This document shows, in pieces, positions 52,364 through 53,078 of a stretch of DNA of 64,000 bases (position 1 is its first letter; each line of letters begins with the position of its first letter). Made by a program: the position numbers and the translations under genes. The notes beneath the pieces were generated by a model, which ran no database searches, had not been told where the DNA came from, and saw only the letters and a program-made list of their open reading frames with translations. This DNA comes from Escherichia coli (lineage in GTDB: Bacteria > Pseudomonadota > Gammaproteobacteria > Enterobacterales > Enterobacteriaceae), in the NCBI RefSeq assembly GCF_030384885.1, contig NZ_CP128613.1; one strand, given 5' to 3'.

Positions 52364-53078
52364 TCAGTATTCTGAATTGACGATCACCTCTTCACCAAAC
52401 GCACCCGCTTGTGGCAAGGGTTTGTAGGTAGAGTTGGAGGCGCGCAGAATGCGGATACCACGAGCGCCGACTTCGCGTGCGGCGGTAATATCGTTATCGG
52501 AATCGCCATAAAAAATTCGGATATTTTTATCCTGTAGCCATTGCGATTTTGTATTTTGACCTGGTTTATCGCCTGCAAAAATTACCGGATTCATGTTGGT
52601 GGCAGGAATGTGAAAATTATCCGCCAGCGTTTTTGACACCGTTTCTGTTTTGGTCGGGCTACGACCAGTCACAAAGAAGATCGCGTCACCGCGGCGTACA
52701 TGCATATCAATCAGCTGGCGAGCGACCTCTTTTGGAATGCTGAATTCATCCCAGCCATTGTTCATTTTTTCCCAGAACACAGGATTTTTCAGATAATCTT
52801 CGCTTTCTGGCGAGAAGGTTTTTTTGCCGCGCCAGAAGCCCGGACTGGAAAAAAGTACCGTGTCATCGATATCAAACCCCCACCGCCATTGGCGGACGCC
52901 CTGCGAGGCTATTTTCTATTTGTGTGACTGAAACCCAATGAACAGGAGCCTGCTCTGCAAGTCTGGCAACGTTAGTACCAGGATTAAGCGGTGAAGGTGA
53001 CGAGGCAAGGGCAACAGCGGAACTGTTTAGAGCGAACAATAAGCAAACGGCACTCAAAGCCTGTGTGATCTTGCGCAT
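52364..53078 (-). pseudogene. aphA: Class B acid phosphatase AphA, disrupted by +1 frameshift (or sequencing error)
   Basis: ORF-track pieces 52872-53078 (signal peptide ...GRPPMAVGV*) and 52364-52780 (C-terminal HAD region) are both AphA; they rejoin if one C is removed from the C5 run at 52877-52881. Confidence 0.8.

Follow-up and report, generated by a model that had tools for sequence, protein, structure and literature searches.

The window, by which we mean the whole stretch of 64,000 nucleotides analysed here, carries on its minus strand an aphA gene whose reading frame is interrupted by one extra base. The gene is flanked by tyrB upstream and by yjbQ, yjbR and uvrA downstream, and its position between tyrB and yjbQ is conserved, as judged from the neighbours in a collinear relative and from the open reading frames (ORFs) of the window. 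The features of the locus are as follows.

52364..53078, minus strand: complete locus of the class B acid phosphatase gene aphA, a pseudogene by frameshift, 715 nt long where 714 nt is normal
53004-53078, minus strand: signal peptide of aphA, residues 1-25, the mature protein starting at residue 26 (from the 1n8n_A alignment)
52872..53078, minus strand: 5' ORF of 68 aa, ending in GRPPMAVGV and a stop (ORF list, and match to positions 1-67 of TIGR01672)
52877..52881, no strand assigned: C5 run (G5 on the coding strand), longer by one inserted base than the C4 run of every intact allele
52859..52876, minus strand: codons TTT GAT ATC GAT GAC ACG of the FDIDDT motif, out of frame, encoding the first Asp pair of the DDDD motif, with the nucleophile
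52364..52780, minus strand: longest 3' ORF, +1 frame, 138 aa from a GTG codon (positions 101-237 of TIGR01672)
52322..52358, minus strand: intrinsic terminator of aphA (terminator scan)

Around the lesion the plus strand reads ...atatcaaaCCCCCaccgccat..., the C5 run occupying 52877-52881; positions 52870-52889, which include this run, are tatcaaaCCCCCaccgccat. The coding strand at the same place is ATG GCG GTG GGG GTT TGA. The insertion brings a TGA into frame two codons downstream, and translation stops at residue 68. After the signal peptide, the 5' ORF encodes 42 mature N-terminal residues followed by one wrong residue (Val) and the TGA at 52872-52874. The frameshift thus falls at mature residue 43, and the premature stop lies about one residue ahead of the FDIDDT motif and its nucleophilic Asp. 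The downstream frame is open as far as the stop at 52364-52366. Its offset from the initiating ATG (53078-52876) is 202, or 1 modulo 3, which places it in the +1 frame, so that a ribosome would have to skip one base to enter it. When it is started at the ATG at 52765 instead of the upstream GTG, the 3' ORF encodes 133 aa; it corresponds to the HAD core of the enzyme, with neither the signal peptide nor the first Asp pair. The terminator that follows the gene consists of a 10-bp G+C-rich stem (52358..52336), 7 nt, and then a T7 tract (A7 on the plus strand, 52322-52328).

The identity of the gene was established with protein family and structure comparisons. Once the extra base was removed, the predicted AphA scored 420.9 bits against the NCBIfam model TIGR01672 (cut-off 195.8), over positions 1-237 of 237. 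The two fragments present in the window jointly matched the same model at positions 1-67 and 101-237 of 237, so chance is not at issue for the split gene. The repaired protein matched PDB entry 1n8n with an E value of 2e-143, its residues 26-237 aligning end to end with residues 1-212 of 1n8n_A with three substitutions. The mature chain starts at residue 26 in this alignment, which identifies residues 1-25 as the signal peptide. Compared with AphA of E. coli K-12 (PDB 1N8N and 2B82; TIGR01672; PF03767), the repaired protein has the same signal peptide, FDIDDT and GDSDND motifs, and the window shares the tyrB-aphA-yjbQ-yjbR-uvrA neighbourhood. It differs by the extra G before the FDIDDT codons, which cuts the product to 68 aa.

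AphA is a Mg2+-dependent periplasmic phosphatase of the HAD superfamily, and the DDDD motif defines the AphA-type enzymes (PMC8475336). The codons for FDIDDT and for GDSDND are both retained in the window, the first pair lying after the premature stop and upstream of any 3' ORF start. The aphA frame is broken by the stop after codon 68, with the remainder in the +1 frame, and the two Asp pairs are nowhere joined in one polypeptide. The 68-aa product contains the signal peptide and none of the catalytic residues. Since neither fragment combines the signal peptide with the full DDDD motif, the G5 allele would be null for periplasmic class B acid phosphatase/phosphotransferase activity. Judging from the sequence, we predict that Mg2+-dependent periplasmic acid phosphatase activity is absent from the strain.

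We next compared the window with its nearest relative. An 851-nt aphA query matched one complete E. coli genome at 99.9% identity and all others at 97.9% or less. The chromosome of strain 2013C-4282 (NZ_CP027579.1) was collinear with the window over all 64,000 bases at 99.981% identity, the two differing by nine substitutions and three one-base indels in 64 kb. A paper in BMC Biology (PMC10100065) lists this strain with the stx1-positive members of Escherichia cryptic clade I whose genomes have been sequenced completely. The closeness of the window to a clade I strain accounts for its approximately 96-98% identity to ordinary E. coli, and the aphA DNA itself is, as expected for cryptic clade I, about 96-98% identical to the alleles of E. 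coli sensu stricto. The aphA gene of 2013C-4282 (WP_001353538.1) is intact; it encodes 237 aa with the sequence MAVGFDIDDT and has a run of four G, the ancestral state. Within the 851-nt aphA region and its flanks the two genomes are identical save for one base, and the alignment places exactly one extra C at the aphA run of the window (C5 against C4). The repaired protein of the window is identical to the 237-aa product of the relative.

An earlier note, made from the window alone, had proposed that aphA is interrupted by an insertion in the C5 run at 52877-52881. The identification of the gene was borne out by the TIGR01672 score, the 1n8n alignment and the neighbourhood, and the position of the lesion was confirmed both in the sequence and by the C4 of the nearest relative. 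The N-terminal part does end at GRPPMAVGV, as the 68-aa ORF at 53078..52872. The proposal that dropping one C restores MAVGFDIDDT agrees with the relative, whose C4 gene is translated without interruption into 237 aa. Only the frame has to be corrected: the HAD part had been assigned to the -1 frame and actually lies in +1.

The remaining indels do not point to a general problem with homopolymers in the window. At the two other positions the window has the common E. coli allele and it is 2013C-4282 that differs, leaving G5 as the only indel private to the window. The window contains 264 homopolymer runs of at least five bases and 179 four-base runs of G or C. Only three indels separate its 64 kb from the closest genome, and homopolymer indels are thus not in excess elsewhere in the window.

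We then searched for the G5 allele in other sequence data. With a 71-nt probe spanning the run, G5 was found in none of approximately 4,375 complete E. coli genomes (those in which at least 80% of the probe was covered); the best matches were 70/71 with one gap, corresponding to G4. The intact AphA protein allele was present on at least 739 contigs of a large collection. Taken together, these two results indicate that G5 is derived and rare. An exact look-up of the 68-aa fragment and of the 138-aa (GTG-start) fragment in the protein collection found neither, because gene callers skip the 68-aa piece and use the ATG start, giving 133 aa. A 44-nt pattern containing G5 had no match in genome_contigs, where a zero is uninformative since this collection holds one genome per species, and none in the JGI metagenome_contigs. 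We therefore looked up the 133-aa C-terminal product, the form that gene callers annotate where aphA is disrupted, and inspected the G-run in every locus retrieved. G5 was found in four Logan assemblies of separate public read sets:

ERR2987533 (L034; the same contig in two samples): 20,402 nt matched, one SNP, no gaps
SRR34489103 (L035): 15,224 nt matched, no gaps, one private SNP and an 18-SNP patch at one end
SRR35948513 (L008): 4,458 nt, 100% identity
SRR12517544 (L010): 2,872 nt, 100% identity

Homopolymers of at least five bases were as in the window at 96 of 96 sites in L034 and at 64 of 64 in L035. The window, L034 and L035 represent three genotypes distinguishable by SNPs; the last two are thus not copies of the window sequence. 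The patch at the end of L035 (contig SRR34489103_10150) comprises 18 substitutions in 90 nt, at window positions 62607-62695, in the leader and 5' part of dusA, and results either from recombination over a short tract or from a chimeric join at the end of the contig. The apparent independence of the four supporting runs may be overstated. A literature search returned nothing specific on aphA pseudogenes and nothing under the run accessions.

The recovery of the same G5 from independent read-set assemblies argues for a real inherited mutation and against a sequencing mistake. We consider it very likely that aphA of the window carries a genuine +1 insertion (G4 to G5), which most probably arose by slippage and was then inherited clonally close to 2013C-4282, within cryptic clade I. 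In this scheme, replication slippage in the short homopolymer would have converted G4 into G5 on the coding strand, and G5 would then have been passed on clonally in a small sub-lineage of Escherichia cryptic clade I. The mutation is presumably very recent: apart from the extra base, neither aphA nor its upstream region or terminator differs from the intact sister allele. Loss of aphA is probably neutral or nearly so, since other E. coli lineages have had the gene disrupted in separate events (see below).

The earlier note had considered an assembly or sequencing error likelier than a pseudogene, the strain being really G4 with an intact aphA and the extra base a homopolymer miscall. We now regard such an error as quite improbable. 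A +1 change in a homopolymer is admittedly the classic type of error, the 44-nt G5 pattern is absent from both contig collections, and an artefact shared by a platform could repeat the G5 call. Homopolymer artefacts are also known at this very locus, in DRR530033 and in three loci with broken genes (L006, L007 and L009), all described below. Against this, the same G5 is present in four other read-set assemblies; the two long contigs, L034 and L035, match the window in length at each of the 64-96 other homopolymers of at least five bases that they cover, and differ from it by SNPs, so that they are not copies; and the window is devoid of any other private indel in 64 kb. Moreover, a run of four to five G is not a typical failure point of consensus assemblies.

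The error-prone data for this locus have a different appearance. In DRR530033 (L036/L004, contig DRR530033_259, 14.5 kb), T7 was changed to T8 in three of three runs, at sites matching window positions 42535, 47765 and 52825, and A7 was altered in none of three. These T8 calls are probably a strand-specific systematic homopolymer artefact, which gives a spurious A7 to A8 frameshift in aphA. We had entertained this A8 as a second inactivation of aphA in the lineage and rejected it, since all three T7 runs read T8 and no A7 was altered. The same A8 is present in SRR024159 (L023), and may be a real allele. Apart from the three probable artefacts and the G-run, which is G4, DRR530033 equals the G5 group in this region; the edge of the G5 clade is blurred as a result. 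In L006, L007 and L009, the alr, tyrB, yjbQ, uvrA or sensor-kinase genes are fragmented beside aphA. L007/L033 (GCA_003382705.1, CP031282.1, 4.5 Mb) represents an Escherichia-like chromosome that has diverged from the window (85-96% identity). Many of the genes surrounding its aphA are broken, with uvrA split into three pieces and a sensor kinase into several, which reflects either heavy degradation of the genome or a long-read assembly left uncorrected.

The G5 allele would continue to make some full-length AphA if ribosomes shifted by +1 at GGG-G / GUU-UGA, or if slippage at the run were frequent and reversible; we give either mechanism hardly any chance. The candidate recoding cassette at the G5 run is GGUGGGGGUUUGAU / GGCGGUGGGGGUUUGAUAUC. 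On GGGGG, tRNA-Gly can move forward by one base with perfect re-pairing, and the 0 frame meets a UGA one codon further on. The G-run also resembles the Shine-Dalgarno-like AGGGGG that lies upstream of the +1 shift site of prfB, from which it is separated by a spacing of 3 nt. On this basis GGU-GGG-GGU-UUG-A could conceivably be a freshly born, prfB-like leaky site at which a measurable fraction of ribosomes restores full-length AphA, an extremely improbable reading of the sequence which, if true, would mean that leaky recoding had been captured at its origin. The likeness to the RF2 gene is superficial and confined to the G-rich Shine-Dalgarno-like stretch, the XUU codon and the in-frame UGA. 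The site of the window is unconserved: all 4,375 complete genomes covering the probe have G4, and the sequences with G5 are all near-identical to that of the window, as for a fresh mutation. In addition, judging from the sequence, the spacing from the G-run to GUU is unlike that of prfB, and UUU would offer poor re-pairing to tRNA-Val. An autoregulatory logic is lacking, and the site is not a member of the prfB family. Phase variation is disfavoured as well, a run of five bases being far shorter than the known phase-variable tracts. Given this lack of conservation of the arrangement, we judged programmed frameshifting and phase variation alike to be very unlikely.

Other natural disruptions of aphA were found in E. 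coli. A frameshift that reduces a T6 run to T5 was present on at least 15 contigs of another lineage, in which the neighbouring genes are intact (L005, L031, L032 and L038, for example in ERR1622223, SRR13779017, SRR28226739 and SRR22784573). This lesion lies at about codon 77 and leaves a 95-aa N-terminal fragment; the lineage is about 98% identical to the window. As in the window, the change is of one base in a short homopolymer and the allele is common to many samples, and the group seems to form a second clade with a naturally arisen aphA pseudogene. Furthermore, aphA is split by an IS1 insertion in the complete genomes of three E. coli strains, CUVM53, E200086 and 19SZHZ869Rt. The IS1A copies are in NZ_CP116976.1, NZ_CM128605.1 and NZ_CP080085.1, where each aphA match consists of two pieces spanning 1,627 bp. 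By comparison, the aphA match was contiguous in 5,397 of 5,426 records. The T6 to T5 and IS1 cases differ from the window in site, background and type of event, and represent independent occurrences.

These cases raise the question of why the lesion has persisted, which does not affect its reality. Loss of aphA might have been selected if the absence of a periplasmic nucleotidase were advantageous, for instance by altering nucleotide or NMN scavenging beside a pnuC/nadR-like module. This module is an insert of two genes between alr and tyrB (54690-56248, minus strand), 1.6 kb from aphA, at a position where E. coli K-12 presumably has no such insert. The first gene encodes a PnuC nicotinamide riboside transporter (TIGR01528, 77.8 bits, cut-off 42.45) and the second a 334-aa NadR-like NMN adenylyltransferase/ribosylnicotinamide kinase that lacks the HTH domain (TIGR01526, with a score of 148 bits that is below the cut-off). 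In the periplasm of Salmonella, AphA converts NMN into nicotinamide riboside, and a broken aphA next to a PnuC/NadR-like pair may for this reason be functionally relevant. Besides this proximity, the independent losses in the T6 to T5 contigs and in the three genomes with IS1, together with the spread of the G5 allele to several samples, are in favour of selection. We nevertheless consider it unlikely. Disruptions are rare compared with the thousands of intact genes (at least 739 contigs for this allele alone, and the 5,397 contiguous matches), and drift can be expected to remove a dispensable gene independently a few times. Two further ORFs of 206 and 175 aa are present between alr and dnaB (57417-58610, plus strand); they are annotated as hypothetical in 2013C-4282 and are also present in L034 and L035.

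The aphA lesion of the window is best described as an ordinary recent clonal pseudogene, which matters little beyond annotation and is not novel biology. The locus should be labelled as a frameshifted aphA pseudogene rather than repaired as an assembly error. Loss of AphA could modestly affect the scavenging of nucleotides, and possibly of NMN, while other periplasmic phosphatases remain. The G5 run would also provide a handy single-base marker for a small clone in Escherichia cryptic clade I, some members of which produce Shiga toxin.

Several other differences between the window and 2013C-4282 were noted. A gene of the DUF2713 family (63063-64000, minus strand) runs off the end of the window and is open there over 311 codons, whereas in 2013C-4282 it is annotated as frameshifted, with an extra A at the position matching window 63408. 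The open gene of the window matches 10 other genomes, and the frameshift of 2013C-4282 is either a pseudogene of its own or an assembly error. In yjdM (3375-3710, plus strand), codon 6 is TAC (Tyr) in the window, at position 3391, and TGC (Cys) in 2013C-4282; in YjdM/PhnA this codon specifies the first Cys of the N-terminal CxxC zinc-ribbon. The 111-aa YjdM of the window was found on 21 contigs, and the 10 that were retrieved are from other E. coli backgrounds. The C6Y change, which we had considered as a lineage marker, was dropped because exactly this protein is also encoded by unrelated E. coli whose DNA is only 96-97% identical; from this distribution it is apparently recurrent or transferred. 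Finally, a run at 48380-48387 that begins 15 nt ahead of the ssb start codon is A8 in the window (T8 on the strand of ssb) and A7 in 2013C-4282. The A8 version was found in the band of at least 99% identity in 2,152 complete genomes, all of the matches listed being at 100%.
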